NCBI GenBank assembly: GCA_963833225.1 | Contig: CAWHXD010000019.1 | Span: 374,075-438,074, forward strand | Origin: an uncultured Chloroflexia bacterium | GTDB lineage: Bacteria; Chloroflexota; Limnocylindria; Limnocylindrales; CSP1-4 | Length of the DNA stretch: 64,000 nt | Direction: 5' to 3' | Part shown: positions 26,269 through 63,391 of the stretch, piece after piece | Numbering within the stretch: position 1 is the stretch's first letter | Layout of the letters: every line of letters starts with the position of its first letter | Made by a program: the position numbers and the translations under genes | The notes under the pieces: model-generated | Told to the model about the DNA's origin: nothing | The model's database searches: none | Seen by the model: the letters and a program-made list of their open reading frames with translations, nothing else

Positions 26269-26278
26269 CGAGTCCTCC

Positions 26279-29369: not shown

Positions 29370-29380
29370 GGCTGGAGGAG

Positions 29381-30489: not shown

Positions 30490-30527
30490 GGGAGTTCCTC
30501 CTCTATGTCGATTACTGGCGCGCGTTC

Positions 30528-45630: not shown

Positions 45631-45663
45631 CCTGGTGCCTCCACGATGCATGGGTGGGGGATT

Positions 45664-45696: not shown

Positions 45697-45711
45697 GTGA
45701 TCGACGGAGAG

Positions 45712-46902: not shown

Positions 46903-46906
46903 CGGA

Positions 46907-47598: not shown

Positions 47599-48921
47599 TT
47601 ATGCCTTGGCCAGCCGCATGGCGACGTCGACCCACTCCCAGAGCCGTCGTGCGTCGTAGCGGATCGTGCTGACGTCCTTGAGGATCAGCTCCACCGGTGT
47701 CCCGGTGCGCCGGCACGCGTCGATCGTTGCCTGGAGCTCCTTCTCGACTGCCTCGGGCTCCCAGCTGTCCATCGCGAGGAGCGCCGGGTTGGGCTTGCGC
47801 GAGAACACGAAGTCGGGACCCATGCTCTCCGCGCCACGGTCCACGTTGACCCACGGGCACATCGAGATCTTCCGGACGTTGGGGATCTCCCGGATGATGT
47901 CGATCCGCCGGTCGAGCACGTCGCAGCAGCCGTAGTAGCCGAGCCCGAACCGCTCGTACCAGCGGACGGTGTACGGGATCTCGTACTCCTTGAACATCGC
48001 CGGCGAGGCGGAGGTGAAGACCTGCGCCATGCCCATCGTCCACAGGTCCTCGGCCCGCGGTCGCTCCGGGTCGAAGCCCTCGTGCGGCAGATCGTCGGTC
48101 CAGGCCGGCGTGCAGTGGACCGTGGACATCGAGTGCCCGAGCAGGCCCTGCGCCTCCATCTGGTCGAGCATGCCGAGATACGCGGTCACCAGGCGGTCGA
48201 TGATCCGGCGCGTATGGTCCGGGCGATCCGCCATGTCGATCAGGATGGCCTCCGCGCCTCGCCAGAACTCGATGGTGTCCCAGAAGTTCGCCCCGCCCGC
48301 CAGCAGCTCCGTCGGCCAGTCGTGCACCAGGGCCCGCGTCTCGGGCTGGGACTCGAGGCCGGGCCACTGGTTGGTGCTCGGCACCCAGCCCTGGAGACGG
48401 ACGGGCAGCACGCCGTCGAAGATGTCGTGCGCCTGGGCCTCGATCCGGGCGGTCTCCTCGGCATCGAGCCAGACCTTCGGGGTCCGGATCTTGTCGGCGT
48501 CCGACTCGTTCGCGAGCTGGTCGATGAAGTGGTGGGAGACGATGTCGTTGCGGGCGTCGACGGCCTCGGTCTCCTCGACCATCTCGATCCCGAAGCCATC
48601 CAGGCGGAGGACCTTCGGGATGAGCAGCACCGGCTCGACCACCATGTCCGCGCGTATGTGCTCCCAGCGATACAGGGTGCGGCGAAGATCGATCTCGAGC
48701 CCGCGATTGAATGGGTCCGTGCACTGGTTGACCAGCATCGGATCATCGGCCAGCTCGTGCCAGGGCAGCTGGTCCAGCGCCACCATCGGGCGCTGCGGAT
48801 GCAGGTCGTTGACCGCCTTCCAGAGCGAGATGGTCTCCTGCTGGACGGGCAGCGCCGCGATCTCGGCGACGCGGCTTCCGAGCTCCCGCAGGATCTCGCG
48901 GTCCCGGGCTACCCCGGCCAT
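47599..48921 (-). CDS. conserved hypothetical protein; positional candidate for the substrate-specific methyltransferase of the corrinoid system (possibly a distant URO-D-like barrel)
   Basis: 440 aa. ATG 48921 lies 6 nt after GGAGGAG. Codon usage looks coding, and Cys-containing blocks are present (YYGCCDVLD, ISMCPW). The family was not securely recognised by eye. Confidence 0.5.
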   Translation of the reverse strand: MAGVARDREILRELGSRVAEIAALPVQQETISLWKAVNDLHPQRPMVALDQLPWHELADDPMLVNQCTDPFNRGLEIDLRRTLYRWEHIRADMVVEPVLLIPKVLRLDGFGIEMVEETEAVDARNDIVSHHFIDQLANESDADKIRTPKVWLDAEETARIEAQAHDIFDGVLPVRLQGWVPSTNQWPGLESQPETRALVHDWPTELLAGGANFWDTIEFWRGAEAILIDMADRPDHTRRIIDRLVTAYLGMLDQMEAQGLLGHSMSTVHCTPAWTDDLPHEGFDPERPRAEDLWTMGMAQVFTSASPAMFKEYEIPYTVRWYERFGLGYYGCCDVLDRRIDIIREIPNVRKISMCPWVNVDRGAESMGPDFVFSRKPNPALLAMDSWEPEAVEKELQATIDACRRTGTPVELILKDVSTIRYDARRLWEWVDVAMRLAKA

Positions 48922-49218
48922 ATGCCACTCCTCCAGGACGCCTGTATCGTCAACCCTGGGCCGCCGCGGGCCCGTCCGCGACACCTCAAGGGTGCAAGAC
49001 TACCATAATCGGCCGTTGGTATATCGATTTTTCGCGCCATTCGTGGCACCATTCAGGCACCGCGACGTGCGTGACCCGGGCGATCTCCGCACGAATGGGG
49101 AGGACATGAGCCAGACGCTGACAAGGCACCCGGATACGGTGAATGGAGGACCGATGGTTCGTCATGGGCCAGAAGTCACGCGTGATAGCGATCCCAGCCA
49201 CTGCTCGCTGGCCGATCC

Positions 49219-50508
49219 ATGCCCGGCCACGAGGCCCGGGCTGTGACCCCGGCCACGGTCCGCCTCGCCTTTGGTCGAGATGGCCTCGAGATCGACGTGC
49301 CGGCCGGCGTGGACGTGCTCCTGCCACGGGCCCGGGTACCGCTCGCCGACCCTGGGGCGGCGCTCCGGGCGGCGCTGGCCGCGCCGGCGACGGCCCATCC
49401 GCTGCCGGAGCTGGCGCCGATCGGCAGCACCGTGGCGGTGAGCGTCTGTGACGTCACGCGTCCGTTTCCATCGCGGGTGGTCCTCCCGGTGCTCCTCGAT
49501 CAGCTCCCGGGCCGGCACGTGCGGCTGGTGATCGCCACCGGAAGTCATCGCGCGTGCACGGACCGGGAGCTCGAGGCGATGCTCGGACCCCGGGTTCTCG
49601 CCAGGTGCGAGGTGGTCCAGCATGATGCGGATGACCCTGCCGCCCATGTCACGCTGGGAACGGTGCCCGGCTCGGATGTGCCGGCCCGCGTCGATCGCCG
49701 GTTCATCGAGGCGGATGTCCGGGTCACGCTGGGATTCGTGGAGCCCCACTTCTTCGCGGGGTTCTCCGGCGGACCCAAGATGGTGGTTCCCGGCCTGGCC
49801 GGCATCGACACCATCCGCGAGCTGCATTCGGTGGCCCGGATCGCCAGCCCCCACGCGACGTGGGGCGTGCTCGACGGCAACCCGGTCCATGATCCGATCC
49901 GGGCGATTGCCGCCCGCGCCGGCGTGGACTTCGCGCTCGACGTCGCGCTCGACGAGGGGAACCGGATCTCCGCCGTCTTCTCGGGGTCGCTGGAGGCCGA
50001 GCACCGCGAGGCATGCGCCGACGTCCGCCAGACGGCAATGGTCGGCGTCGCGGAGCCGTACGACGTCGTCGTCACGACCAACAGCGGGTATCCGCTGGAC
50101 CAGAACCTCTACCAGTGCGTGAAGGGCCTCAAGGCCGCGGCGGGGATCGTGCGCGACGGTGGCACGATCATCCTGGCTGCGGCCTGCGAGGACGGGCTGC
50201 CAGCCCACGGCCGCTACGCGCACCTGCTGGCGAGCGCGCCCGGACCGGCCGAGTTCCTCGCGGCCCTCTCCCGAGGGGAGATCTCGGAGCGGGACCAGTG
50301 GCAGGTGCAGGTGCAGGCGGGGATCCAGGCGCGCGCTCGCGTCCTCGCCCACACGCCCGGCCTGGGCGCCGAGGATCTGCGGAGGGCGTGGCTTCAGGCG
50401 GCGGATGACGTGGCGGTCGCCCTGCGGGACGCCCTCGCGGTGGCCGGTCCGGGGGCGCGTGCGGCGATCCTGCCAGTCGGTCCCCAGACGATCGCGTATG
50501 TGACCTGA
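49219..50508 (+). CDS. larA: LarA-family nickel-pincer-dependent 2-hydroxyacid racemase/epimerase homolog (DUF2088)
   Basis: VIATGSHR, GFVEPHFFAGFSGGPKMVVPG (cofactor-Lys block), TTNSGYPLDQNLYQCVKG. The exact start is uncertain (ATG 49219 or a downstream GTG). Confidence 0.8.
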   Translation: MPGHEARAVTPATVRLAFGRDGLEIDVPAGVDVLLPRARVPLADPGAALRAALAAPATAHPLPELAPIGSTVAVSVCDVTRPFPSRVVLPVLLDQLPGRHVRLVIATGSHRACTDRELEAMLGPRVLARCEVVQHDADDPAAHVTLGTVPGSDVPARVDRRFIEADVRVTLGFVEPHFFAGFSGGPKMVVPGLAGIDTIRELHSVARIASPHATWGVLDGNPVHDPIRAIAARAGVDFALDVALDEGNRISAVFSGSLEAEHREACADVRQTAMVGVAEPYDVVVTTNSGYPLDQNLYQCVKGLKAAAGIVRDGGTIILAAACEDGLPAHGRYAHLLASAPGPAEFLAALSRGEISERDQWQVQVQAGIQARARVLAHTPGLGAEDLRRAWLQAADDVAVALRDALAVAGPGARAAILPVGPQTIAYVT

Positions 50509-50576
50509 GCCCGTTCGTTTGACATGCCAACGTCCGCTGTCTACCGTGGACAAACGTTGTTTCAGAGGAGCCGACC

Positions 50577-51446
50577 TTGACCGTCATCGACGCCCACCAG
50601 CACTTCTGGAACCCGAGCCGCGTCGCCTATGACTGGCTGGGACCGGATCTGGGCCCGATCAACCGGGCCATCGAGTTTGCGGACCTGGAGCCGCTGCTTG
50701 CGGCCACGGGCGTGGAACGCACGGTCCTCGTCCAGTCGGCGGACAACGCAGCCGACACCGACTTCATGTTCGAGATCGCGGCCGCGCACCCCGAGATCGC
50801 GGCCGTGGTCGGCTGGGTCCCACTCGATGATCCGGTTGCCACGGCGGAGCGCCTCCCGGTGTTGCTCGCGAACCCGGTGTTCGCCGGGATCCGCAACCTG
50901 ATCCATACGCAGCCCGATCCCGACTGGCTGCTGAGGCCCGACGTGGATGAGTCCCTGGGCCTCCTCGCTGCCCGGGACGTGCCGTTCGACGTCGTATCGG
51001 TCCTGCCCCGGCACCTGGAGCACGTCCCGACCCTGTCCGAGCGACACCCCGAGCTCCGGATGGTCATCGACCATCTCTCCAAGCCGCCCATCAAGGCCGC
51101 GAGCGACGAGCCCTGGCGGTCCCTCATCGCTCGCGCGGCCGAGAACCCGCTCGTGTTCGCCAAGGTCTCGGGTCTGTACCCGTCCGTCGGCGACATGGCC
51201 GCCTGGACAGCGGACGACGTGCGGCCCTATCTGCACACGGCCCTCGAGCTGTTCGGCGCCAAGCGCCTCATGTTCGGTGGCGACTGGCCGATCTCGGTGC
51301 TGGCCGGTGGGTACGTGCGGGTGTGGGAGAACCTGAGCAGCCTGTTCGACGAGCTGTCGGCCGAAGACCGGGAAGCCATCCTGGGTGGGACCGCGGCGCA
51401 GTTCTATGGAATCCCGGCGGGCCGGCTCCCGGGAGGCGGCGCGTGA
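50577..51446 (+). CDS. amidohydrolase-2 family sugar lactonase (L-fucono-/L-rhamnono-lactonase-like)
   Basis: IDAHQHFWNP...VLVQ...IDHLSKPP...FGGDWP is the signature of the COG3618 lactonase group. Confidence 0.75.
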   Translation: MTVIDAHQHFWNPSRVAYDWLGPDLGPINRAIEFADLEPLLAATGVERTVLVQSADNAADTDFMFEIAAAHPEIAAVVGWVPLDDPVATAERLPVLLANPVFAGIRNLIHTQPDPDWLLRPDVDESLGLLAARDVPFDVVSVLPRHLEHVPTLSERHPELRMVIDHLSKPPIKAASDEPWRSLIARAAENPLVFAKVSGLYPSVGDMAAWTADDVRPYLHTALELFGAKRLMFGGDWPISVLAGGYVRVWENLSSLFDELSAEDREAILGGTAAQFYGIPAGRLPGGGA

Positions 51447-52525
51447 TCACGCGGTTTGATCCCGTCGCCGAGGCCTGCCGGATCGAGGTCCCCGACGCCC
51501 ATCGACGGCCGATCGCCATCGTCGGCGCCGGCGCCATCGTGGACTTCGCGCACCTGCCGGCCTATCGCGCCGCCGGCCTCGAGGTTGCCGGGATCCACAA
51601 CCACCATCCCGCGCGGGCCGTCGACGTGGCCGGCCGTCACGGTGTGCCGCGGGTCTACGAGACGCTCGAGGACCTGCTTGGCGACGACCGGGTCGAGGTG
51701 GTGGACGTCGCCGTGTCCGCGGCCGCCCAGCCCGAGATCGTGCGCCGGGCGCTCGAATCGGGGCGCCACGTGCTAGCCCAGAAGCCGTTCGCACCGGATC
51801 CGGCCACCGGCCAGGCGCTGGTGGACCTCGCCGAGTCGCGCGGGCTGGTCCTGGTCGTGAACCAGCAGCTCCGCTTCGACGAGGGGATGGCCGCGGCCCA
51901 CCGGATGGTCGAGCTGGGCTGGATCGGCGACGTCACCGCGATGTCGATCACGGTCAACATCTGGACGGACTGGCATTCCTGGCCATGGATGCTCGAGACA
52001 CCCCGGCTGGAGGTGATGGTCCATTCGATCCACTATCACGACGTGATCCGCTGGTTCCTGGGCGAGCCGTCGCTCGTGTTCAGCGTCGGAGGCCGCACGC
52101 CGGGCCAGGCGCCCGTCGGGGAGACGCGGACCGTGACCACGTCCACCTATCCGTCCGGCGCGATCTCCGTGGTCCACGCCAACCACGAGAACGGCACCGG
52201 TGACAACCTCGCGACGTTCCGCATCGATGGCTCGCGGGGTGCGATCCGGGGCACCCTGGGCCTGCTCTACGACTACCCCAGCGGGCGGCCGGACACCCTG
52301 GAGATCAGCAGCGAGGTGCTGCCGACTGACGGCTGGGTCCCCTATCCGGTGGGCTCACGCTGGCTGCCCGACGCGTTCCTGGGGCCTATGGCGTCGCTGC
52401 TGCGGGCGGTCGCCACCGGGTCCACGCCCCGTTCCAGCGGCCGCGACAACGTGGGCACGCTGCGGCAGATCCAGCGGATCTACGAATCGATGGAGCGGGG
52501 AGCGGCGGTCCGGGTCGAGGGCTGA
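51443..52525 (+). CDS. Gfo/Idh/MocA family NAD(P)-dependent oxidoreductase (candidate sugar 1-dehydrogenase)
   Basis: IAIVGAGAIV...HVLAQKPFA Rossmann/EKP-like motif. GTG 51443 overlaps the lactonase stop (GTGA). Confidence 0.8.
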   Translation: MITRFDPVAEACRIEVPDAHRRPIAIVGAGAIVDFAHLPAYRAAGLEVAGIHNHHPARAVDVAGRHGVPRVYETLEDLLGDDRVEVVDVAVSAAAQPEIVRRALESGRHVLAQKPFAPDPATGQALVDLAESRGLVLVVNQQLRFDEGMAAAHRMVELGWIGDVTAMSITVNIWTDWHSWPWMLETPRLEVMVHSIHYHDVIRWFLGEPSLVFSVGGRTPGQAPVGETRTVTTSTYPSGAISVVHANHENGTGDNLATFRIDGSRGAIRGTLGLLYDYPSGRPDTLEISSEVLPTDGWVPYPVGSRWLPDAFLGPMASLLRAVATGSTPRSSGRDNVGTLRQIQRIYESMERGAAVRVEG

Positions 52526-52536: not shown

Positions 52537-52998
52537 TCAGGCGGGTGCCGACCCGCGCTTCTCGACGACGTACAGGTGGACGAGGACGAGCACCACCTCG
52601 CCGGCCTGGTTGGTCACGGTCACCGTCTCCTCGACCATGCCCAGCGCCTCGGGTCGCCGGCGGTGGTCGGCCAGGCCCGTGATCTCGGCTCGCACCGTGA
52701 TCGTGTCACCGATGAACACGGGCCGCACGAACCGGACCCGATCGTAGCCGTAGCTCATCGCCCGGGGGTTGATGTCGCCCGCCGTCATGCCCACGGCCAT
52801 CGACATCACGAGCGTGCCATGTGCCATCCGGCGCTCGAAGGCCTGCGTGGCGCACCACTCGGCGTCCATGTGGTGGGGGAAGAAGTCGCCGGTCTGCCCG
52901 GCGTGCAGGACGATGTCGGCCTCGGTCACGGTCCGGCCCGTGGTCGTCCGGCTGGTGCCGGTGACGTAGTCCTCGAAGAACGCCTCAACCGTGTTCAT
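52537..52998 (-). CDS. MaoC-like (R-specific enoyl-CoA hydratase / hot-dog fold) dehydratase
   Basis: 153 aa: [23 protein letters not shown]...AHGTLV...[15 protein letters not shown] overlap with the upstream gene. Confidence 0.85.
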
Positions 52999-54143
52999 GT
53001 CGCGGTCTCCTCCTCCCGTGCCCGGGCGACCACCCGGTCGGCCGCCTCCAGGCAGGCCGCGTCGGTCAGCTCACCGCGCAGGGCCCGGTTGACCAGCCCG
53101 CCCACCTCGTCCTGGACCTGCAGCCAGCCATCGAACCGGGGCCGCACCCAGGCGCCGTCCAGCGTCCGCCGCGTGCCGCGGAAGAACCCCAGGCTGTCGG
53201 CGTCGACCGCCTCGTCGTCCCAGGCGTCGATGTTGGCCGGCTGGCCGCCGCTGGCGTAGTAGACGCCGCGCTGGACCTCGCCGCTCGCGAGCCAGAAGGC
53301 ATGGTCGACGGCAATCTCCGGCTGCGGCGAGAAGGCCGACACCGCGATCCCGGCGCCACCCAGGCAGGAGCCGGCGACGCCCCGGGGACCGGCGGGCATG
53401 TCCACGTAGGCGAGGCGGTGGGCACGGAACCCGGCACGGCTGTAGTTCGTATAGCCGAAGGCGAGCGGCGCGTAGCACCAGCGATCATCAGTGGCGAGGC
53501 GTTCCGCAGCCTGGATCGGGTTCTCGTCGAGGCATGCCGGATCGACCAGCTCCGCGAGGTGGTGCAGGTCCTCGAGGATGCCCTCGCCGTCCCCGCGGGC
53601 GATGAACCCGTCCCCGGCGATCGCGGCGCCGCGGTTTGCCGCGAGCGTCAGGAAGCTCGAGATGGCGTCCACCGGCTTGGCCGGCCAGACGACCCTGCCC
53701 GTGCGTGCGAGCTCGAGCACCTCGTCCCACGTCTTCGGCGGCACGGGCAGCAGATCGGGGCGATGGATGGCCACCTGGGCCGCGGCATCGATCGCGAGGC
53801 CGTACTGGTGACCGGCGTGCGCATAGGTCGCGTGTGACGGGCCGACGGCCTGCGTCGCGAGGGCCGCAAGCTCCACGTCACGACCGCACGTGTCGAGCGC
53901 GGCGAGGAGCCCGGCTGTCGCCGCGTGCGGGATGTGCGGATGGTCGATCACCATCAGGTCGTACGTCCGGGCGAGGGTCTCGAGCGGCTGGTCGGCGAAC
54001 CCCTGGAGCGATCGGGCCTCCCACTCCACCCGCACGCCGGGGTGGAGCGAGCTGTAGGCCTCCGCCGCCCCCCGCACGCTGTCCAGGCCGCGCGGATGGT
54101 CCCACGTCATGCCTCGGAGAACCGCCGGCAGCGGATCGCTCAT
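52995..54143 (-). CDS. solute-binding-protein-like protein without signal peptide (cytoplasmic), unknown function
   Basis: 382 aa. The N-terminus [19 protein letters not shown] has no hydrophobic or lipobox segment. Overall SBP family-1-like pattern (LMVIDHP..., WDEVLELA..., GGAGIAVS). ATGA overlaps on both sides. Confidence 0.55.
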
Positions 54144-55390
54144 GCGCCCGCCGCGTCGTCGATGGGACGGAGGTCCAGCTCCGCGTCGATGGACGCCGTG
54201 TGCTCGCCCAGCCGCGGGGCGCCCCGGTCGCCGCCCAGCGTGCCGTGGTCGATCCGCAGCGGGCTCCGGGTCGTGTGCAGGGTCACCTCGCCGTCGCCCG
54301 TAGCCGAGGGCCGTCGCACCACCCGGTCCATCGCCAGGGCATGGAACCCCTCGTGGCCGACGAGATCGGGCAGCGTGAGCACGGGAGCGCACCACACGTC
54401 CGCCGGCTCCAGGATGTCGAGCCAGTCGCGGGTCGGGCGCGTGGACAGGTGGGCCGCCAGCAGGTCCTCGATCCGCTCCCGCTCCGTCCACCACGTCTCG
54501 GGGTCGCCGAATGCCGACAGGGCATCGAGCCCGATGAGCTCGCCGAGCCGCGGCACCGAGTTCATCGCGAGCGCGAGGTACCCGTCCGCGGTGGGGTAGA
54601 CGCCGTACGGGGCGGCGAGGAAGGCGTTGGCCCCGTGCGGTCCACCGCGGTCAACGAGCACCGACGGATCGTTCAGGTGGGCGCTGAGGAGCTCGAACTG
54701 GAGGTCGAGCATTCCCTCCATCAGGCTGGTCTCCACCAGGCCACCCTTGCCGGTGCGCTCACGGCGCAGGAGCAGCGCCGTGATGCCCTGCGCCAGGTGG
54801 ACCGAGGCGAGCAGGTCCGCGATCGACAGCCCGACCGGCACCGGCCCGTGGTCCCGGCTCCCGCTGAGCCACGGCAGGCCCGACATCGACTGCGCGAGCA
54901 GGTCCTGGCCGGGCAGGTCGCGCCACGGCCCATCGGGCCCGTAGCCGCTCACGCTCCCGTAGACCAGGCGCGGGTTGAGCGCCCGCGCGGATTCGAAGTC
55001 CAGCCCGATGCGCTCCATGACCCCCGGCCGGAAGTTCTGGATGAGCACGTCGGCGCGGGCCACGAGCCGGCGGATGGCCGCCAGGTCGGACGCGTTCTTG
55101 AGGTCGGCGGCGTAGCTCTCCTTGCCGCGGTTCATGATCTGGAACGAGAGGGTGTCGCCGTCGAGGAACTTGCCGGCGAAGGCGAGCGTGCGCCCGATGT
55201 CGCCGACCCCGGGACGCTCGATCTTGATCACCCGGGCCCCGAGATCGGACAGCCGCATCGCGGCGACGGGCCCGGCGAGGAACTGGCTGAAGTCGAGGAC
55301 CAGGATGCCGTCCAACGGCGGGATCGGCACCTTCCGGGCTCCCTCGCGTGCGGCACCCATCCGTGCTCCTCCCTCGTCGGCTCGGTTCAT
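54140..55390 (-). CDS. family III CoA-transferase (CaiB/BaiF/Frc family)
   Basis: PLDGILVLDFSQFLAGPVAAMRLSDLGARVIKIERP...NRGKES...VLIQNFRPG...GYG...GQDLLAQ is canonical. Confidence 0.88.
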   Translation of the reverse strand: MNRADEGGARMGAAREGARKVPIPPLDGILVLDFSQFLAGPVAAMRLSDLGARVIKIERPGVGDIGRTLAFAGKFLDGDTLSFQIMNRGKESYAADLKNASDLAAIRRLVARADVLIQNFRPGVMERIGLDFESARALNPRLVYGSVSGYGPDGPWRDLPGQDLLAQSMSGLPWLSGSRDHGPVPVGLSIADLLASVHLAQGITALLLRRERTGKGGLVETSLMEGMLDLQFELLSAHLNDPSVLVDRGGPHGANAFLAAPYGVYPTADGYLALAMNSVPRLGELIGLDALSAFGDPETWWTERERIEDLLAAHLSTRPTRDWLDILEPADVWCAPVLTLPDLVGHEGFHALAMDRVVRRPSATGDGEVTLHTTRSPLRIDHGTLGGDRGAPRLGEHTASIDAELDLRPIDDAAGA

Positions 55391-55400
55391 CACGTCCTCG

Positions 55401-56615
55401 TCAGCTCGCCGATGCCCGCTCGGCGACCGTGACCAGCGGCTGGCAGGCCGGCCCGATGGGCTCGAAGCTCTTGTAGCCGAGGACGAACTCCTGGTGGCCC
55501 ATCTGCTCGCTCGCGGTCTGGCGGCCATCGGCCACGTCACGGACCAGCTGCACGATCTCGGCACCGACCTCCGCCAGGGTTCCCCGGCCCTCGATCACGC
55601 GCCCGGCGTTGACGTCCATGTCGTCGGCCATCCGGGCGTACGTCTCGGGGTTGGCGCAGACCTTGACGATCGGCGAGATCGCGGACCCCACGACCGAGCC
55701 GCGGCCGGTCGTGAACAGGATCATGTGGGCGCCACAGGCCATGAGCTCGGCCGCCTCGGCGTTGTCGTTGATGTTGGGGAAGCCCCACCGCACCTCGCCG
55801 TCCGGGATCACGTCGAGCAGGTAGAGGCCTGGGTGGGCCGGGATGTCGCCGGGCTTGATGATCCCGCTGATGGCTGCCCGGCCGCTCTTGGCATAGGCGC
55901 CCAGGGACTTCTCCTCGATGGTCGTGAGCCCGCCCTCGGCGTTGCCGGCGGCGAAGCTCCCGTGCCCGAGCACGTTGTAGTAGGCCTCCGCCTTGTGCAC
56001 GGCGCCCACGAGGGCCTGGCCCAGGTCCGGGGTGATCGCGCGCTCCGCCATCCGGTACTCGCAGCCGATGAGCTCGCCGGTCTCCTCGAAGATCGCGACC
56101 GCGCCGGCCGCCACCAGCTGGTCGAACGCGAGGCCGACCGCCGGGTTGGCCGTGATGCCGCTGGTGCTGTCGGAGCCCCCGCAGATGGTGCCGATGACCA
56201 GGTCGGAGAGGTCCATCGGCACCCGCGGGACGCTGGCGATCTCGTTGATGGCCTGCCGGACCCAGGCCCGTCCGGCCTCGATCGTGGCTCGCGTGCCACC
56301 CGCGTGCTGGACGACCAGCGTGTGCACCGGGCGGCCGCTCGCCGCGACGGTCCGCGCGAGCTCGGCCCGGTCGAACCCCTCGCAGCCCAGCGAGACGATC
56401 AGCACCGCACCGACGTTGGGATGGGTCGCGAGCCGGTGGAGCATCAGCGCCCCGTAGTCGTTGGGATAGCAGCCGCCGAACCCGATCACGTGGACGTCGT
56501 CCTCGAGCCCGCTCGCGATGCGGGTGGCGACGTGGTGGGAGCACTCGACCGTGTAGATCACCGCGACGACGTTGCGGATGCCCTTGCGGCCGTCGGACCG
56601 GAGGAACCCCTGCAT
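55401..56615 (-). CDS. UxaA/GarD-family sugar-acid dehydratase, large (catalytic) subunit
   Basis: GFLRSDGRKGIRN, VSLGCE, ICGGSDSTSGITANP, FTTGRGS is the altronate/galactarate dehydratase C-terminal domain pattern. Confidence 0.85.
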   Translation of the reverse strand: MQGFLRSDGRKGIRNVVAVIYTVECSHHVATRIASGLEDDVHVIGFGGCYPNDYGALMLHRLATHPNVGAVLIVSLGCEGFDRAELARTVAASGRPVHTLVVQHAGGTRATIEAGRAWVRQAINEIASVPRVPMDLSDLVIGTICGGSDSTSGITANPAVGLAFDQLVAAGAVAIFEETGELIGCEYRMAERAITPDLGQALVGAVHKAEAYYNVLGHGSFAAGNAEGGLTTIEEKSLGAYAKSGRAAISGIIKPGDIPAHPGLYLLDVIPDGEVRWGFPNINDNAEAAELMACGAHMILFTTGRGSVVGSAISPIVKVCANPETYARMADDMDVNAGRVIEGRGTLAEVGAEIVQLVRDVADGRQTASEQMGHQEFVLGYKSFEPIGPACQPLVTVAERASAS

Positions 56616-56619
56616 GCGG

Positions 56620-56925
56620 TCAGGCCTCCCCTCGCGCGTGCGTGCGCATGTAGATGCTGGTGAGGTTGTGGGTGTGGATCAGCTCGCCGCGGGTGACCGG
56701 CTGCGTCGTCCGTCCGATGGGCATCCCGTACCGGATCGCGTCGGTTCCCTGGGCGAGGTCCAGGGCAGCGACCTTGAACCCCAGTGGCAGCGGGACCTGC
56801 GTCTCGACGCTGACCCCGTCGACCATCATCCGCTCGCCGGCGGCGATGGCGGCGATCACGATCAGCACGTTGTCCCCGTCCGCGAGCCGGAGCAGCCGGG
56901 GATCGGATCCGCCCGCGTCGCTCAC
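56620..56925 (-). CDS. UxaA-family dehydratase small subunit (SAF domain)
   Basis: DNVLIVIAAIAAGERMMVDG...VPLPLGFKVAALDLAQGTDAIRYGMPIG...GELIHTHN (SAF/altronate dehydratase N-terminal). The likely GTG start at 56925 overlaps the RraA-like stop (GTGA). The track start is 56937. Confidence 0.8.
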   Translation of the reverse strand: MSDAGGSDPRLLRLADGDNVLIVIAAIAAGERMMVDGVSVETQVPLPLGFKVAALDLAQGTDAIRYGMPIGRTTQPVTRGELIHTHNLTSIYMRTHARGEA

Positions 56926-57629
56926 AGGACGTGCCACCGTTCCCAGACCTCGCGCAGGCTCGCACCCCCGAGGAGCTCCCCGAGGACCGACCGCTCGGCG
57001 GTTGCCCGGGCGGTGGCTCGCGCCAGGACCTCGGCCTCGACGGCGGCCGGCACCACGACCACGCCGTCATCGTCGGCAAGCACGAGGTCGCCGGGCGCGA
57101 CGAGCACACCGCCGCAGCGGACGGGTTCGCCGGTCGAGACCACGCGCATCCGCCCCCGGAAGTCGACCGGCCGTGAGCCGGGCGCGAAGACGTCAAACCC
57201 GACGGACCGGATCTTGGCCACGTCGCGGACCGGGCCGTCGCAGACCGCGCCAGCAGCCCCGTGGCCCTTGGCGGCCGCCGAGAACAGCTCGCCCCAGTAG
57301 GCCGTCCGCAGATCACCCCCGGTGGCGATCACGGCGAGCGAGCCGTTGTCGAGCCCGTCGATGAAGTCCATCACGGCATCGTACGGGTTGTCGGGGTTCG
57401 TCTCAGTCGGGGCGAACTGGACCGTCCGGGCGCGCCCAACGGCTCGAGCGCCCGTCACCAGGGGCGCGATGGCCGGGATCATGACCTGCGCCCGGACCCC
57501 GAGCGTGTCGAGCGAATCGGACACGATCGCCGACGTGAGCGCGGCCGCAAGCTGGGTGGGCAGATCCTCGAAGCGAGCCGCACGACCCTGGACATTCGTT
57601 TGCTCAGCCATGCGGGGCAGTATAGCCAC
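56922..57629 (-). CDS. RraA/HMG-CHA aldolase family protein (class II pyruvate aldolase / oxaloacetate decarboxylase-like)
   Basis: SAIVSDSLDTLG...GSLAVIATGGDLRTAYWGELFSAAAKGHGAAGAVCDGPVRD...GDLVLADDDGVVVVP. Start is GTG 57629 or ATG 57611. Confidence 0.8.
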   Translation of the reverse strand: MAILPRMAEQTNVQGRAARFEDLPTQLAAALTSAIVSDSLDTLGVRAQVMIPAIAPLVTGARAVGRARTVQFAPTETNPDNPYDAVMDFIDGLDNGSLAVIATGGDLRTAYWGELFSAAAKGHGAAGAVCDGPVRDVAKIRSVGFDVFAPGSRPVDFRGRMRVVSTGEPVRCGGVLVAPGDLVLADDDGVVVVPAAVEAEVLARATARATAERSVLGELLGGASLREVWERWHVL

Positions 57630-57670
57630 CCCGCTTCCGAGCGTACAGGGGGCAACTTCCGGCTGAAATG

Positions 57671-57722
57671 TATCGTTCGATATAGGAGCGTCGAGGGTGC
57701 TGTTTATCGTTACCAGATTGAC
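57671..57722. promoter_or_regulatory. AT-rich divergent control region: TATCGTTCGATA quasi-palindrome (57671-82), second TATCGTT (57705-11), TTGACA -35-like hexamer (57717-22)
   Basis: Read directly between the divergent RraA-operon and SBP-gene starts. Confidence 0.35.
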
Positions 57723-57821
57723 ATTTGCGGCCGCGAATGGTTACCCTGCCTTCGTTCCGGCGCTGTCCGTTCAGGTCGGTCGCCGGCGGTGGCAGGGACC
57801 ACACCTTTGGAGGAGCTATCT

Positions 57822-59216
57822 ATGCGCTCACTGTCCAGGCATTCCGGCCTGGCCCGTCTGGTCGCCGGCGGCACCGTCGCGGTGCTCCTGGTGTCCGCAT
57901 GCTCGGGCTCGTCGAGCACACCGGCGCCCGCATCGCAGGCGCCCGGCGCGTCCACGGCTCCCGCGACCCAGGCGCCCGCCGATGACAACGCCACTGACTC
58001 GGGCGGCCCCATCATGGTCTGGGTGGACGCCCCGCGCGTCCCCGCCGCCGAGGCGTTCCAGAAGGCCTACCCGGACATCCAGATCGAGATCAACGCGATC
58101 CCGGGCAACGTCGGCAGCACCGACCTGCAGCAGAAGTTCGCCCTGTTCAACCAGGCCGGCAGCGGCTGGCCGGACGCGATCTTCTTCCCGTCCAACGACG
58201 ACATCGCCTGGGCGACCAGCGCCAAGATCAACTACGCCCGCGACCTGAGCGGCCTGCTCGGGGACTACCTCACGGGCTACACCGAAGCCAACAACGCCCC
58301 GTGCAACATCGACGGCCAGGTCCGCTGCGCCCGCAACGACTCGGCACCCGACGTGTTCTGGTACAACAAGACGCTGTTCGACGAGTGGGGCTACACCCCG
58401 CCGACGACGTGGGAGGCGTACCAGGACCTCGGCATCAAGATCGCCACCGAGCATCCGGGCTACATCAGCGGCTTCCTCGGTGACGCCTACGCGCCGGACC
58501 GCTACCTGTGGGCCAGCGGCTGCCCGACCAACGACCGCCTGTCCGAGACCAAGGTCCACATCAACACCAGCGATCCGATGTGCACGCGGGTCGTGGACCT
58601 CGTCGACAAGATGGTCGCGGCCGGGGCCCTCAGCGCCGTCGGCATCTTCGACCCCAACGCCGCCGAGATCGGCCCCAAGCTCGCCATGAGCCCGGGCGCC
58701 GTGTGGTGGGGCAACTACCTGTTCCGCGACACCTGGAAGATCCCGGCCGGCCAGATGACCGCCACCAACCCGATCAACTGGACCGGCGAGACCCCCGGCT
58801 TCACCGGTGACGAGGGGGGCGGCCTGTGGGGCGTCTCCAGCCACATCAAGGGCAAGCAGCTCGATAACACGCTGACCTTCATCAAGTTCGTCACCAGCGA
58901 CCCGCGCTGGCAGGTCGATCTCTCGACCGGCCTTCCCGCCTACACGGCTCCCCAGCAGGCGTGGCTCGACAAGGGCGCGAAGGACGGCTACTTCGCCGAC
59001 TACCCGACGACTGCGGCGGCCATGGTCGAAGCCGGCAACCGCGTTCGCGGCAACCACTACTACATGCTCTACAACACCGGCGGCATCTGGAGCAAGACCG
59101 TGACGCCGGTCCTCACCGCGGGCCAGGACCTCAGCGCGGCCTGGGATGCCTTCGGCACCCAGCTCGTCAACGAGGCCAAGACCTTCGGGTACGAGGTCGT
59201 CGACACCGGGAACTGA
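57822..59216 (+). CDS. carbohydrate ABC transporter substrate-binding lipoprotein (family 1)
   Basis: ATG 57822 lies 6 nt after GGAGGAG. Signal plus lipobox (LVAGGTVAVLLVSAC), a Ser/Pro/Ala linker, then an SBP_bac_1-like body. Confidence 0.88.
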   Translation: MRSLSRHSGLARLVAGGTVAVLLVSACSGSSSTPAPASQAPGASTAPATQAPADDNATDSGGPIMVWVDAPRVPAAEAFQKAYPDIQIEINAIPGNVGSTDLQQKFALFNQAGSGWPDAIFFPSNDDIAWATSAKINYARDLSGLLGDYLTGYTEANNAPCNIDGQVRCARNDSAPDVFWYNKTLFDEWGYTPPTTWEAYQDLGIKIATEHPGYISGFLGDAYAPDRYLWASGCPTNDRLSETKVHINTSDPMCTRVVDLVDKMVAAGALSAVGIFDPNAAEIGPKLAMSPGAVWWGNYLFRDTWKIPAGQMTATNPINWTGETPGFTGDEGGGLWGVSSHIKGKQLDNTLTFIKFVTSDPRWQVDLSTGLPAYTAPQQAWLDKGAKDGYFADYPTTAAAMVEAGNRVRGNHYYMLYNTGGIWSKTVTPVLTAGQDLSAAWDAFGTQLVNEAKTFGYEVVDTGN

Positions 59217-59228
59217 TCCCTGCGCAGG

Positions 59229-59253
59229 CAGCCTCCCGGCCCCCGGGAGGCTG
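59229..59253 (+). terminator. hairpin CAGCCTCCCGG-ccc-CCGGGAGGCTG after the SBP gene
   Basis: Read directly, 13 nt after the stop. Confidence 0.5.
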
Positions 59254-59261
59254 ACTAGACT

Positions 59262-59291
59262 GATGGGGAAGGGCCTGTGTCCTTCCCCATC
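59262..59291 (+). terminator. hairpin GATGGGGAAGG-8 nt-CCTTCCCCATC (second intercistronic stem-loop)
   Basis: Read directly. Together with 59229-59253 it forms a tandem stem-loop pair between the SBP and permease genes. Confidence 0.5.
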
Positions 59292-59352
59292 ACGAGTTCC
59301 AGCGCCAATCGCCCCATCCTCGTCACAGCCCGTGAGGTGACCGCAGGCCCGC

Positions 59353-60285
59353 ATGAGCAGTTCGTCCCCGGTCGGAGTGGCGGCCGCCCGTCGTCGATCC
59401 GGAATGCCTCGCCTGTCCCTGCCCGGCGCCGAGTCGCGTGGCGCCGCCATCCTGGTGCTCCCGTTCGTGGTGCTGCTGACGGTCGCGGGCATCGTCCCGA
59501 CCGTCTACGCGCTGCTCAAGAGCCTCGGCGACAGCAACGGCGAAGGCATTGGGTTCAGCAGCTTCGCGAAGATCATCGGGGACTTCCGGTTCGTCGACAC
59601 CTTCCTCAACATCGGGATCACGCTGATCGTCTGGCTGCCCCTGATGATGGTCGGTGTCGTGGCCCTCGCCCTGCTCGTGCACGCCAGCCCGGGCCGCTTC
59701 GGCTCCGTGATGCGGTTCGTGTACTACGTGCCGGGCGCGCTTGCCGGGATCGCGAACTTCATGCTCTGGCTGTTCATCCTGAATCCGGGCCAGAGCCCCG
59801 TCGACTTCCTGTGGAACGGGTTCGGGTACACGACCCTCAACCAGGTCGCCCAGCCCACCTACCTGCCAGTCATCCTGGCGGCGATGCTGTTCTTCCAGGG
59901 CGCCGGCACGTGGCTGGTGATCGTCAACGGCGGCCTCAACGGGATCCCCGACGAGGTCATCGAGGCGGCCGTCGTGGACGGGGCCGGATCGTGGGCGATG
60001 ACATGGCACATCATGCTGCCGATCATCCGGCCGTGGATCGGCTACATGCTCCTGCTCAACGTCGCGTACGGGTTCCAGCTGTTCATCGAGCCGCAGGTGC
60101 TGAGCCAGGTCACGCATGGGCAGATCTCGCCCCAATGGAGCCCGAACCAGCTCAGCTACACCTACGCGTACCAGATCCTCGACACGGGCGCGGCTGCCGC
60201 GATGTCGGTGATCCTGCTCGCCATCTCCCTCGGACTCGGCCTGGTGATCGTCTTCCGCACCGGCCTGTTCTCCGATGATCACTGA
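59353..60285 (+). CDS. carbohydrate ABC transporter permease (MalF/UgpA-like)
   Basis: 310 aa, 6 TM, with an EAA-type loop (IPDEVIEAAVVDGAGSWAMTWHIMLPIIRP). Confidence 0.88.
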   Translation: MSSSSPVGVAAARRRSGMPRLSLPGAESRGAAILVLPFVVLLTVAGIVPTVYALLKSLGDSNGEGIGFSSFAKIIGDFRFVDTFLNIGITLIVWLPLMMVGVVALALLVHASPGRFGSVMRFVYYVPGALAGIANFMLWLFILNPGQSPVDFLWNGFGYTTLNQVAQPTYLPVILAAMLFFQGAGTWLVIVNGGLNGIPDEVIEAAVVDGAGSWAMTWHIMLPIIRPWIGYMLLLNVAYGFQLFIEPQVLSQVTHGQISPQWSPNQLSYTYAYQILDTGAAAAMSVILLAISLGLGLVIVFRTGLFSDDH

Positions 60286-60296
60286 GGAGGCGGAGC

Positions 60297-61223
60297 GTGA
60301 GCAGTAGAACGTCCGACACCCATCGCCGCCACGCTGGCGCCCACTGGACCCTCAGCCGGGCCGGCCGCGTCGGCGCGCTGGCGGTCGCGGCCCTGATCTT
60401 CGGCATCCCGATCCTGACCTTCGTGCTGATGGGCTTCCGCCAGCAGGACCCCGTCGGCCAGGTGCCCGGCGGCATCTTCTCGCTGGGCGGGCTGTCCCTC
60501 GAGAACGCCGCCAACAGCCTGCGCGTCGTGATGGACTTCAACCACGGCATCTTCGCCAAGTGGATGGCGAACTCGCTGATCGTGGGCATCGGCGGCACCG
60601 CCCTGGCCGTGCTCACCGCCATGCCGGCCGGCTATGCCCTGGCCATGCTCCGGTTCCGAGGCCGGCGCCAGCTGCGCTTCATCACCCTGCTGACCATGGT
60701 GATGCCCAACACCGTGCTCGTGATCCCGTTGTTCCTCGAGGTCAGCGCCGTCGGCGCCATCGGCCAGCTGTGGCCCGTCATCGTGATCATGGGCTTCTAC
60801 CCGTTCGGCGTGTACCTCGCCTACATCCACTACCTCACGACGCTGCCACGCGAGCTGGTGGAGGCCGCCCGGCTCGATGGCCTCAACGAGGTCATGGTTT
60901 TCCTGCGGATCGCGGTGCCCATCTCGAAGCAGGCCGTCGCCCTGGTGATCTTCTTCAGCTTCGTGGCCAACTGGACCAACTACTTCCTGCCCCTGGTGCT
61001 GCTGCCGCTGTCGGAGCAGGGGACGGTCTCGCTCGGCCTGCAGCAGCTGGTCGGGTCGAGTCCGCTGTTCGACCCGACGATGTCCGCGGGCCTGAGCGTC
61101 AAGCTCTACATGCCGCAGCTGGCTCTCGCCACGACCATTACCATCGTGCCCGTCCTGGCCGTGTTCATCATGGCCCAGCGGTTCCTGTCGCGGGGAGCCG
61201 TCGTCGGGGCCGTCAAGGGCTGA
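60297..61223 (+). CDS. carbohydrate ABC transporter permease (MalG/UgpE-like)
   Basis: 308 aa, with EAA loop (LPRELVEAARLDGLNEVMVFLRIAVPISK). Confidence 0.88.
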   Translation: MSSRTSDTHRRHAGAHWTLSRAGRVGALAVAALIFGIPILTFVLMGFRQQDPVGQVPGGIFSLGGLSLENAANSLRVVMDFNHGIFAKWMANSLIVGIGGTALAVLTAMPAGYALAMLRFRGRRQLRFITLLTMVMPNTVLVIPLFLEVSAVGAIGQLWPVIVIMGFYPFGVYLAYIHYLTTLPRELVEAARLDGLNEVMVFLRIAVPISKQAVALVIFFSFVANWTNYFLPLVLLPLSEQGTVSLGLQQLVGSSPLFDPTMSAGLSVKLYMPQLALATTITIVPVLAVFIMAQRFLSRGAVVGAVKG

Positions 61224-61254
61224 GCGCGTCGCACCGGGGAGCCACCGTCGCCAG

Positions 61255-62355
61255 ATGACAACGACGCCGCGCCGACCTGCCTCGAGGATGAGGCCACGGA
61301 TCACGCTGGCCGACGTGGCCCGCAGGGCCGGCGTGTCCGTCTCGGTCGTCTCGCGGGAGCTCAACGGGGATCCGGCGCTGCGGGCCCGCAGCGAGACGCG
61401 ACGGCGGATCCACGGGGCCGCCAAGGCGCTGGGCTACACCCCCAGCCATGCGGCGCGCGCCCTCCGCCTGTCAAAGGCGTTCGCGATCGCGCTCGTCGTT
61501 CCGGACCTCACGAACCCCGTCTACAGCCAGCTGATCCGGGGGATCGAGGATGCCGCGGACGAGCTTGGCTACCAGGTGCTCATGGGCCGCACCGAGCGGA
61601 TCGAGCCCGGCACGGACTTCATCCGGCGGCTGGTAGGTGAGGGCCGCGTCGACGGCTTCCTCGTCCAGCGCCGCGACGAGACCGACCCCCAGGAGTTCGC
61701 GCACCTGATCGACGGCACGGCGCCCGTGGTGCTGATCAACTCCCGCGGCTCGCGGCGCGGCTCGGTGGTGCTCGACGATGCCGCCGGGGCGCGAAGGGCG
61801 ACCCAGCACCTGCTGGACCTTGGTCACCGGGATATCGCCCTGATCGGTGGGGACATCCACAGCCACACCGGGCGAGCACGCGAGCGGGGCTACGTCCAGG
61901 CGATCAACGCTGCGCGCATGCGCCGCCGGTCGGCCTGGGTGCTGCACTCCGGCTATACGCCCGAAGCCGGCCGCCTCGCCATCCGTGAGCTGTGCGTGAC
62001 CAATGGCCGGCGGCCGACCGGCGTCGTGGTGTCCAACGTGAACGCCGCCATGGGTGTCCTGCTCGGGGCGCGGGAGGTCGGGCTCAAGGTCCCGGAGCAG
62101 CTGTCGGTCGTGGCGATCCACGATTCCTGGTTCACCGAGTACGCGTCGCCGTCGCTGACCACCGTCCGGATGCCGATGTACGAGATGGGGCGCGAGGCGG
62201 TCACGCTGCTCCACCTTCGCCTCGAGGGCGAACGACCGGTCGACGTGATGATCGAGGCCCCGGCGCCCGAGCTCGTCCACCGCCAGTCCACGGCACCGCC
62301 CCCGAAGCGGCTGGCCCGGGCGCGCGAGCCCATCCCCGGACCCGAGCGTGGCTGA
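61255..62355 (+). CDS. LacI family transcriptional regulator
   Basis: ITLADVARRAGVSVSVVSRELNG HTH plus a sugar-binding core. Confidence 0.88.
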   Translation: MTTTPRRPASRMRPRITLADVARRAGVSVSVVSRELNGDPALRARSETRRRIHGAAKALGYTPSHAARALRLSKAFAIALVVPDLTNPVYSQLIRGIEDAADELGYQVLMGRTERIEPGTDFIRRLVGEGRVDGFLVQRRDETDPQEFAHLIDGTAPVVLINSRGSRRGSVVLDDAAGARRATQHLLDLGHRDIALIGGDIHSHTGRARERGYVQAINAARMRRRSAWVLHSGYTPEAGRLAIRELCVTNGRRPTGVVVSNVNAAMGVLLGAREVGLKVPEQLSVVAIHDSWFTEYASPSLTTVRMPMYEMGREAVTLLHLRLEGERPVDVMIEAPAPELVHRQSTAPPPKRLARAREPIPGPERG

Positions 62356-63387: not shown

Positions 63388-63391
63388 CGCG

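Follow-up and report, generated by a model that had tools for sequence, protein, structure and literature searches.

What does an operon do in which the subunits of a sugar-acid dehydratase are encoded together with a coenzyme A (CoA) transferase, an enoyl-CoA hydratase and a protein with the fold of a sugar-transport binding protein? The question is raised by six minus-strand genes at 52537-57629 of a 64,000-nucleotide stretch of DNA from an uncultured Chloroflexia bacterium (contig CAWHXD010000019.1, positions 374,075 to 438,074); this whole stretch is called the window below. A preliminary description, made from the sequence, had taken the six genes as one unit. Our comparison of loci showed that they are two separable modules: module A, consisting of the RraA-like, SAF and UxaA genes, and module B, consisting of the genes for a family III CoA-transferase (CoAT), a cytoplasmic protein resembling solute-binding proteins (SBPcyt) and a MaoC-type hydratase. 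Module B, not the six-gene set, is the conserved and interesting part.

The G+C content of the window is about 71% and its lists of open reading frames (ORFs) were full of shadow frames; the real genes were picked with a third-position G+C filter and Pfam. Six real co-directional ORFs were found at the coordinates claimed for them earlier, and the domains assigned to them were correct:

56922-57629, minus strand: RraA-like protein with the class II pyruvate-aldolase/decarboxylase fold (PF03737, 6e-34)
56620-56937, minus strand: SAF-domain small subunit of a heteromeric UxaA/GarD-family dehydratase (PF08666; start at GTG 56925 or GTG 56937)
55401-56615, minus strand: large subunit of the UxaA/GarD-family dehydratase (PF20629, GD_AH_second, 3e-28; PF04295, GD_AH_C, 8e-80)
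54140-55390, minus strand: family III (CaiB/BaiF) CoA-transferase, CoAT (PF02515, CoA_transf_3, 4e-96)
52995-54143, minus strand: SBPcyt, a cytoplasmic, signal-less protein with the MalE/CUT1-type solute-binding fold (PF13416, SBP_bac_8, and PF01547, SBP_bac_1, 2e-15)
52537-52998, minus strand: MaoC-type hot-dog enoyl-CoA hydratase/dehydratase (PF01575, 3e-22)

Two separable modules

Relatives of SBPcyt were encoded in at least 493 genomic loci (species genomes), and the window proteins were mapped onto a sample of 80 of these, 56 of which made up a full-flank subset. CoAT and MaoC lay beside SBPcyt in 78 of the 80 loci (MaoC in 77 or 78, by two counts); RraA was found in 23 and UxaA in seven. 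The reverse test started from UxaA relatives at 65-89% identity, taken from 39 metagenome loci with a length of 8 kb or more. SAF was adjacent to UxaA in 36 of them and the triad CoAT, SBPcyt and MaoC was present in only four, all with window-like synteny; about 20 read GFO-SAF-UxaA-lactonase-SDR-FAH-RraA-like-SDR, where GFO denotes a GFO/IDH/MocA dehydrogenase and lactonase a fuconolactonase-like Amidohydro_2 protein. The low counts of UxaA around the triad (7/80) and of the triad around UxaA (4/39) mean that the six genes are not a conserved unit, and the earlier view of them as one set had to be given up. The RraA-SAF-UxaA genes also occurred without the others (L104 and L161) and on the opposite strand (L004). 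The closest syntenic relatives of the window were Chloroflexota metagenome-assembled genomes (MAGs), with 68-91% protein identity.

The neighbours of the triad were mostly sugar genes. A LacI regulator was present in 63-65 of the 80 loci, the lactonase in 60, GFO in 49, the importer solute-binding protein (SBP) in 46 and RhaM in 13-14, and a second copy of CoAT in 14; AKR, two enolase-superfamily dehydratases, SDR, FAH and GntR also recurred. One or more sugar-oxidation genes (1-dehydrogenase, lactonase, mutarotase, fucosidases or rhamnosidases) accompanied the triad in 55 of the 56 full-flank loci, where a 1-dehydrogenase was found 54 times, a lactonase 48, a conventional dehydratase 40 and RraA or FAH 35 times. 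The 16 full-flank loci without a conventional dehydratase (UxaA or MR_MLE) were exactly the 16 without RraA or FAH, i.e., the canonical dehydration and cleavage genes come and go jointly and independently of the triad. Loci with the triad span Actinomycetota, Chloroflexota, Planctomycetota, Verrucomicrobiota, Bacteroidota and Alphaproteobacteria; across these phyla module B is tied to deoxy-sugar oxidation genes.

Single loci illustrate the range of arrangements. Three compact clusters had neither a conventional dehydratase nor a cleavage enzyme: in Kribbella, flanked by unrelated genes, CoAT2, LacI and SBP-perm-perm-GFO-CoAT-SBPcyt-MaoC-lactonase with 4-nt overlaps; in Planctomycetales (L072), a GH29 fucosidase, two MaoC, GFO, SBPcyt, lactonase, RhaM and CoAT; and in a Bifidobacteriaceae MAG (L089), RhaT-GFO-lactonase-RhaM-SBPcyt-CoAT·CoAT-MaoC, the dot marking a tandem protein. 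The Nocardioides locus carried GFO-FAH-SDR-CoAT-SBPcyt-MaoC-SBP2cyt-AKR-MR_MLE-lactonase-LutABC in one string (SBP2cyt is introduced below), which amounts to all of canonical route III, as far as lactate oxidation, with the triad inserted in its middle. In Hymenobacter, SBPcyt, CoAT·CoAT, an SBP2cyt::GFO fusion and MaoC lay among genes for GH78, GH106, two GH2 and GH127; in Pelagicoccus, SBPcyt, a crotonase, an aldehyde dehydrogenase and CoAT·CoAT adjoined two GH29 genes. Both of these loci had an MFS transporter instead of the ABC system, and the crotonase standing in MaoC's place supports a genuine enoyl-CoA hydratase step. In Rhodobacteraceae the triad was accompanied by an ABC importer, two MR_MLE, RhaM and SAF-UxaA, with a large subunit 66% identical to that of the window. 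Sinorhizobium meliloti pSymB carried a CoAT-SBPcyt pair with a 4-nt overlap just after traA (L084:14847-17134, about 731.3-733.5 kb of NC_003078), 54% and 46% identical to the window proteins. This pair lay about 10 kb from a cluster of amidohydrolase, IclR, sugar ABC and MR_MLE genes, with unrelated genes between.

The proteins of module B

The catalytic Asp of CoAT is conserved, within GLSIADLLAS, as seen in an alignment to YfdE, Frc and SUGCT. MaoC has the motif GDFFPHH, which, by comparison with the hydratase motif, we take to be the Asp/His dyad of (R)-specific hydratases; its relatives in the PDB were 4FFU (164 bits), the PaaZ hydratase domain, which hydrolyses an enol ether, and beta-methylmalyl-CoA dehydratase. 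None of the six operon proteins reached a curated or equivalog cut-off of NCBIfam. A resemblance to itaconate or mesaconate handling, noted in the preliminary description, held at the level of families, since the itaconate (Ict-Ich-Ccl) and mesaconate (Mct-Mch) modules also combine a family III CoA-transferase with a MaoC-family hydratase, but it went no further: CoAT scored 180.5 bits with the Mct model against a cut-off of 700 (and 66 against 413 with CaiB), and MaoC 52.4 bits against 340 with RipB/Ich. The window has no lyase gene of the CitE/HpcH type, and the conserved neighbours are sugar-oxidation genes. Judged by these comparisons, module B belongs to neither the itaconate nor the mesaconate type.

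Tandem CoAT-CoAT proteins of 770-830 amino acids, each half about 50% identical to the window CoAT, numbered about 300 in our searches and occurred in Hymenobacter (L087:10001-12454), Bifidobacteriaceae (L089:5147-7639), Pelagicoccus and Planctomycetota. In P0148, the single tandem that was aligned, both halves retain the catalytic Asp. These long proteins had been considered as possible CoAT-SBPcyt fusions, which would have been evidence of physical coupling, and were rejected as such. One 806-residue ORF of a Microbacteriaceae MAG (L040:8717-11137) does join CoAT and SBPcyt; it is probably a frameshift or assembly artefact.

SBPcyt of the window opens directly at the first beta-strand, with no signal peptide or lipobox. 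The in-frame stretch upstream of it lies inside the CoAT gene and is rich in Arg, Pro and Gly, like an off-frame translation, so that no missed signal peptide was found there. A mis-started exported protein was also rejected on family-wide alignments without signal peptides: 21 of 21 aligned relatives begin within a few residues of the first beta-strand, as did those in a second alignment of 10. The absence of an export signal, remarked on earlier for the window gene, thus applies to the family. A database search gave more than 3,900 relatives of about 375-385 amino acids; members of the family carry the annotation 'multiple sugar transport system substrate-binding protein'. When 1.84 billion representatives were searched with a profile, 719 clusters (50% identity) were obtained at E <= 1e-30, and the profile start aligned to residues 1-19 in nearly all of the top 150 representatives.

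The AlphaFold2 model of SBPcyt (pLDDT 86, pTM 0.87) had a complete two-lobe MalE/CUT1 fold, and Foldseek matched it to transport SBPs only (SmoF, MalE, TMBP; TM about 0.8, identity at most 20%). SBPcyt shares this fold with the SBPs of CUT1 ABC transporters, but it has neither an export signal nor permeases of its own: it does not belong to a transport operon with permeases and is coupled to CoAT and MaoC by ATGA overlaps, and the exported SBP of the window is a separate gene (57822-59216). In Hymenobacter SBPcyt accompanies an MFS transporter and in Bifidobacteriaceae RhaT. Across six phyla, at 36-61% identity, TWxHxRG, RSL, DHP, Y107, Q113, D119, RxD, E214, GY, Y234, GGxG, Q291, GGQP, W308, RPR and Q344 are invariant, which indicates a well-defined site rich in Arg.

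There is also another family of SBP-like proteins without a signal peptide, SBP2cyt, which is very divergent and has no member in the window. In Nocardioides it comes after MaoC (L085:11589-12758), in Planctomycetota it precedes GFO (L090:12922-14157), and in Hymenobacter it is fused to GFO in a 784-residue protein (L087:12444-14798). SBP2cyt and RhaM never occurred together in the 80 loci (9 loci against 13-14), a small sample.

Module A and the 6-deoxyhexose island

For module A, both Pfam and TIGR03248 (galactarate dehydratase) indicated a separate SAF subunit beside a large subunit with the GD_AH second and C-terminal domains, positions 3-78 of TIGR03248 matching the former and 108-493 the latter. 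The large subunit is related to the galactarate dehydratase 6U7L (3e-42) and contains eight Cys residues; four conserved Cys residues (Cys134, 173, 208 and 276 of C785_RS13685) have been proposed as iron ligands (PMC6336799). Relatives of the large subunit carry source names such as 'altronate dehydratase large subunit', so the split architecture is routinely recognised. The homology search with this subunit returned generic names only, with no Paraburkholderia reference among the matches.

A heteromeric two-subunit L-fuconate dehydratase has been inferred from gene context in Paraburkholderia mimosarum (A19U_RS0100650/655), in a fucose-induced route III cluster (Watanabe et al. 2019, PMC6336799), and the same paper lists the UxaA/GarD superfamily, including the heteromeric SuyAB. 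UxaA-family proteins are also reportedly linked, in a follow-up paper (PMID 30985034), to non-phosphorylative L-fucose, L-galactose and D-arabinose pathways. The statement that the first half of the operon uses families foreign to fuconate routes therefore needs correction, since not all of its families are. The window pair is like this type of L-fuconate dehydratase in its separate SAF subunit, its large subunit of about 400 amino acids and its surrounding cluster of sugar 1-dehydrogenase, lactonase, SDR and FAH hydrolase; the likeness to the P. mimosarum pair is one of architecture and context, and the window pair differs in being co-transcribed with an RraA-like gene and the CoA module. From its sequences, module A matches a known type, a heteromeric UxaA-family sugar-acid dehydratase with an aldolase-like partner, and the SAF-UxaA pair would dehydrate L-fuconate or a similar aldonate.

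The Arg-Asp catalytic pair is kept in the RraA-like protein, in which DGPVRDVAKIR aligned to DAGVRDTQTLR of the HMG/CHA aldolase 3NOJ. The protein did not reach the equivalog cut-offs for LigK/PcmE (94.8 against 179 bits and 89.4 against 304.5 bits) and is a distinct subfamily, not LigK; its nearest solved relative, 3K4I, is uncharacterised. The aldolases of L-2-keto-3-deoxyfuconate (L-KDF) known so far are reportedly, in a JBC paper of 2020, of the DHDPS/NAL type, and we know of no description of an L-KDF aldolase with the RraA-like fold. HMG/CHA aldolase (LigK) and FlDet have the RraA-like fold and the Arg-Asp pair in common with the window protein and act on 4-hydroxy-2-oxo or 2-keto-3-deoxy acids. 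The protein had been described earlier as RraA/HMG-aldolase-like, but RraA-like proteins are not only aldolases: FlDet is an RraA-like KDGR dehydratase/decarboxylase acting on a 2-keto-3-deoxy acid (PMC8563752).

The operon is tight, as had been described, with junctions that overlap or nearly abut. The RraA-like/SAF junction reads as a GTGA overlap, provided that SAF starts at 56925; the SAF/UxaA gap is 4 nt, and the CoAT/SBPcyt and SBPcyt/MaoC junctions are ATGA overlaps. The earlier limit of 10 nt for all gaps agrees with these junctions but probably not with UxaA/CoAT, which measures 10 nt with ATG 55390 and 40 nt with ATG 55360 as the CoAT start; the latter is likely the true start, since the strong Shine-Dalgarno sequence GGGAGGAG precedes it. 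The RraA-like gene probably starts at ATG 57611 (alternatively GTG 57629), which is conserved in the syntenic loci about 8 nt 3' of a conserved TATACT (window 57605-57630). From this spacing, the transcript of the six-gene operon would have no leader or a very short one.

The following features surround the six genes:

45307-45711, minus strand: RhaM-family (L-rhamnose mutarotase-like) protein (PF05336, 3e-29)
49219-50508, plus strand: LarA-like 2-hydroxyacid racemase (NCBIfam lactate racemase, 431.5 bits against a cut-off of 460)
50577-51446, plus strand: fuconolactonase-like Amidohydro_2, the lactonase (NCBIfam L-fucono-1,5-lactonase, 190 bits against a cut-off of 400)
about 51503-52525, plus strand: GFO/IDH/MocA dehydrogenase, GFO (Pfam)
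57630-57821, no strand: divergent promoter/operator region, between the RraA-like gene and the importer SBP
57822-59216, plus strand: exported lipoprotein CUT1 solute-binding protein (Pfam; ATG 57822; lipobox LVSAC)
59353-60285 and 60297-61223, plus strand: two ABC permeases (Pfam)
61255-62355, plus strand: LacI regulator (Pfam)
62362-63468, minus strand: SDR/epimerase-family dehydrogenase (Pfam)
63392 to the window end (64000), minus strand: FAH-family hydrolase, truncated (Pfam)

The importer SBP, the two permeases and LacI form one divergent operon (57822-62355, plus strand), in agreement with the earlier statement that the six genes are divergent from a sugar ABC importer. In the promoter region between them, LacI-type AACGATA/TATCGTT cores were found at 57671-57682 (TATCGTTCGATA) and 57701-57715 (TGTTTATCGTTACCA), with a -35-like TTGACA at 57718-57723. 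The two copies of the core (57671 and 57705) both lie in this promoter, and it occurs nowhere else in the window. A block of TTGACA and TG(G/A)TAACGATAAACA was conserved across the syntenic loci; no other locus contained the exact operator TATCGWWCGATA, and close relatives kept just the looser block with the AACGATA core. A single LacI repressor probably governs both divergent operons.

Downstream of the six genes, the LarA-like, lactonase and GFO genes form a convergent operon (49219-52525, plus strand) whose synteny is maintained in L001-L003, L094, L099 and L103. The sole PDB relative of the lactonase is BmulJ_04915 (4DLF, 4DNM, 4DO7), an L-fucono-1,5-lactonase, and the LarA-like protein co-transcribed with it and with GFO came almost to the lactate racemase cut-off. 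At the other side, the top NCBIfam match of FAH was 2,4-didehydro-3-deoxy-L-rhamnonate hydrolase (172 bits), and SDR and FAH of the window are probable route III enzymes. An MtaA/CmuA/URO-D-like methyltransferase homologue (45712-47019, minus strand) lies directly upstream of the RhaM-like gene, and a 461-residue protein without a Pfam or NCBIfam match is encoded at 47599-48984 (minus strand). Both are kept in syntenic loci, the latter at 80-86% identity in L002, L094, L099 and L103, and they might relate to methylated deoxy sugars.

Further left in the window lie FucI/FucU with a LacI regulator and a rhamnose-type phosphorylative cluster (24029-38364), which comprises a SorC-type regulator, a class II aldolase, a xylose-isomerase-like TIM protein, an FGGY kinase, a CUT2 ABC transporter and an aldolase-II::SDR fusion. 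The earlier label of a fucose island holds only in part: with the rhamnose-type cluster beside the fucose genes, the island serves rhamnose as well as fucose and is better called a 6-deoxyhexose island. A gene for a fused alpha-beta E1 of a 2-oxoacid dehydrogenase adjoins the sugar cluster (21697-24369, minus strand; 890 amino acids, with E1 dehydrogenase, transketolase pyrimidine-binding and transketolase C-terminal domains).

A proposed CoA-dependent step in deoxy-sugar oxidation and its alternatives

We favour, while giving it not quite an even chance, a reading in which the operon joins two modules of a LacI-controlled oxidative (non-phosphorylative) 6-deoxy-L-hexose pathway, of the L-fucose/L-rhamnose type, and in which module B is a CoA-cycling hydro-lyase of the CaiB/CaiD kind that acts on a 6-deoxy-aldonate. 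On the side of module A, SAF and UxaA would form the two-subunit dehydratase that converts the 6-deoxy-aldonate to a 2-keto-3-deoxy acid, and the metal-dependent RraA-like protein would most likely cleave this acid to pyruvate and L-lactaldehyde. For module B we infer a substrate, a cycling of CoA and a role for SBPcyt as follows. CoAT would load CoA onto a hydroxy acid of the pathway, most likely the 6-deoxy-aldonate supplied by the GFO or AKR 1-dehydrogenase and the Amidohydro_2 lactonase. Such an aldonate is a 2,3-dihydroxy acid, and formation of its thioester would permit elimination of the 3-hydroxyl; MaoC would then carry out an alpha,beta-elimination or a hydration on the thioester, for instance from the 2,3-dihydroxyacyl-CoA to the enol of 2-keto-3-deoxyacyl-CoA. 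CoAT would hand the CoA to the next substrate molecule with no ATP spent, and a second or tandem CoAT would fit separate priming and cycling roles. SBPcyt would be a cytoplasmic descendant of a sugar-transport binding protein and would act as a ligand-recognition or accessory subunit of CoAT, or catalyse a further step. Because SBPcyt is always coupled to CoAT, and SBP2cyt lies beside GFO in Planctomycetota and is fused to it in Hymenobacter, the pattern suggests that each SBP-like protein serves one enzyme, as ligand-recognition subunit or as catalyst.

The model for this proposal is the 'carnitine dehydratase' CaiB/CaiD of E. coli, in which a CoA-transferase and an enoyl-CoA hydratase keep CoA circulating between product and substrate (PMC2131755). 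Module B is like it in that a family III CoA-transferase and an enoyl-CoA hydratase are co-encoded, and by analogy we propose for it that a 3-hydroxy acid would be hydrated or dehydrated only as the CoA ester, with CoA passed from product to substrate. It differs in having a MaoC hot-dog protein and not a crotonase (Pelagicoccus excepted), no CaiC-type ligase, an extra, obligatory-looking partner with the SBP fold, a context of sugar oxidation and not of betaine metabolism, and a CoAT that falls far below the CaiB cut-off (see above). DddD is a tandem CaiB-CaiB CoA-transferase/lyase for dimethylsulfoniopropionate. Tandem CoAT-CoAT orthologues of the window CoAT share that arrangement, and a CoA ester enabling beta-elimination would be common to both systems; the window CoAT, in contrast, has a single domain, a separate MaoC would perform the elimination, and the leaving group would be a hydroxyl, not dimethyl sulfide. 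The non-phosphorylative L-fucose and L-rhamnose pathways described so far are route 1, with an aldolase, and route 3, with a 4-dehydrogenase and a hydrolase (PMC11199699). Homologues of their mutarotase, 1-dehydrogenase, Amidohydro_2 lactonase, dehydratase, SDR and FAH surround the triad, but no described version has a CoA-dependent step or a cytoplasmic SBP-like protein. Our literature search, the GapMind paper included, found no published link of the triad or its CoA genes to deoxy-sugar acids, as the preliminary description had maintained.

Several observations weigh against this proposal. The identity of the substrate of module B is pure inference. A conventional aldonate dehydratase was also present in 40 of the 56 full-flank loci, and Nocardioides has a complete route III; beside such an enzyme a second dehydratase would seem superfluous, except for another stereoisomer or a modified sugar. 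Conversely, the 16 loci that lack the dehydratase also lack RraA and FAH, so that the work of module B may extend beyond dehydration, or its product may enter a pathway whose genes lie elsewhere. No CoA ligase for priming (AMP-binding, CaiC-like) was found in the window operon or in the annotated loci; a second CoAT may do the priming in its place, but the window has one CoAT only, against two in 14 of 80 loci and tandem fusions in several phyla. To our knowledge there is no precedent for an SBP-fold subunit of a CoA-transferase, and the search of long CoAT proteins found no family of CoAT-SBPcyt fusions. Finally, the S. meliloti pair has no adjacent MaoC.

It is also possible, though we consider it rather unlikely, that module B and GFO form a parallel branch for a related substrate of the same regulon and leave plain L-fucose and L-rhamnose to the canonical route. 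Candidate substrates would be a modified 6-deoxy sugar such as 2-O-methyl-L-fucose, or else a sugar, acidic or branched, derived from glycans of the pectic or fucoidan type. The complete route III plus module of Nocardioides, with its two dehydrogenases (AKR and GFO) and two cytoplasmic SBP-like proteins, would be explained by such a branch, and so would the position of the Hymenobacter module among the GH78, GH106, GH2 and GH127 genes, presumably a set for pectin or material like rhamnogalacturonan II. The methyltransferase homologue beside RhaM in the window and the PaaZ hydratase domain among MaoC's closest characterised relatives point in the same direction. The compact clusters, however, hold only mutarotase, 1-dehydrogenase and lactonase, with no sign of a demethylase or esterase, and the analyses made back no particular candidate substrate.

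Less probable still is a full replacement of dehydratase and cleavage enzyme by CoAT, MaoC and SBPcyt, with SBPcyt catalysing C-C cleavage or some other reaction of the 2-keto-3-deoxyacyl-CoA. On this view the compact clusters would suffice by themselves to convert the sugar to central metabolites. The joint absence of both canonical steps from 16 loci, the compact clusters of Kribbella, Planctomycetales and Bifidobacteriaceae, and the unusually rich set of polar invariants of SBPcyt (among them TWxHxRG, DHP, RxD, GGQP and RPR), which is more enzyme-like than transporter-like, speak for it. Nevertheless, we know of no aldolase or lyase with the SBP fold, the Foldseek matches of SBPcyt were binding proteins only, the downstream genes may be elsewhere in those genomes, and the canonical downstream enzymes were present in most loci.

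We regard it as very unlikely that module B acts on a three-carbon product, L-lactate or a lactaldehyde-derived acid, as the CoA ester. The LarA-like racemase of the window, LutABC at the end of the Nocardioides string and the aldehyde dehydrogenase adjoining the module in Pelagicoccus would be consistent with this. But MaoC-type enzymes use 3-hydroxyacyl or 2-enoyl thioesters, not 2-hydroxyacyl-CoA such as lactoyl-CoA; lactate-oxidising genes are already there where lactate is expected; and the compact clusters of Kribbella and Bifidobacteriaceae have no lactate-producing enzymes. Least credible of all is either a single linear six-step pathway (sugar acid to 2-keto-3-deoxy acid to pyruvate and an aldehyde-derived acid handled by the CoA genes), as pictured earlier and suggested by the tight operon of the window and its closely related, apparently Chloroflexota, loci, or an accidentally co-located dicarboxylate module suggested by the family-level similarity of CoAT and MaoC to itaconate and mesaconate enzymes: the halves are separable in both directions and may lie on opposite strands (L004), the scores are far under the equivalog cut-offs, a CitE/HpcH-type lyase occurred near the triad in one annotated locus only (L080) and not in the window, and the synteny with sugar genes, kept in six phyla, is hard to reconcile with accidental co-location.

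Returning to the CoA-cycling hydro-lyase, a broader and more doubtful proposal can be drawn from it. CoAT, SBPcyt and MaoC, joined in many lineages by a second CoAT, SBP2cyt and GFO, may constitute an unrecognised CoA-dependent branch of L-fucose and L-rhamnose oxidation in which the sugar acid is processed as a thioester, a fourth mechanistic class of aldonate dehydratases in addition to the enolase, IlvD/Edd and UxaA classes, with a transport-type SBP fold recruited into the cytoplasm as enzyme subunit or catalyst. Conceivably, such a branch could take the place of the dehydratase and the cleavage enzyme alike.

L-Fucose and L-rhamnose are major parts of plant, algal, host and microbial glycans, and their oxidative catabolism by routes 1 and 3 is regarded as solved. 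What is new here is a three-gene module of no assigned function within deoxy-sugar clusters of at least six phyla and at least 493 species genomes. The question is made directly testable by the compact clusters of seven to ten genes in Bifidobacteriaceae and Kribbella, and the model organism S. meliloti carries the CoAT-SBPcyt pair. If true, a CoA-dependent sugar-acid step would bring a new chemical logic to the non-phosphorylative sugar pathways, would put right the routine labelling of thousands of proteins as "sugar ABC transporter substrate-binding protein", and would show plainly that a binding protein of transport can become a metabolic component of the cytoplasm.

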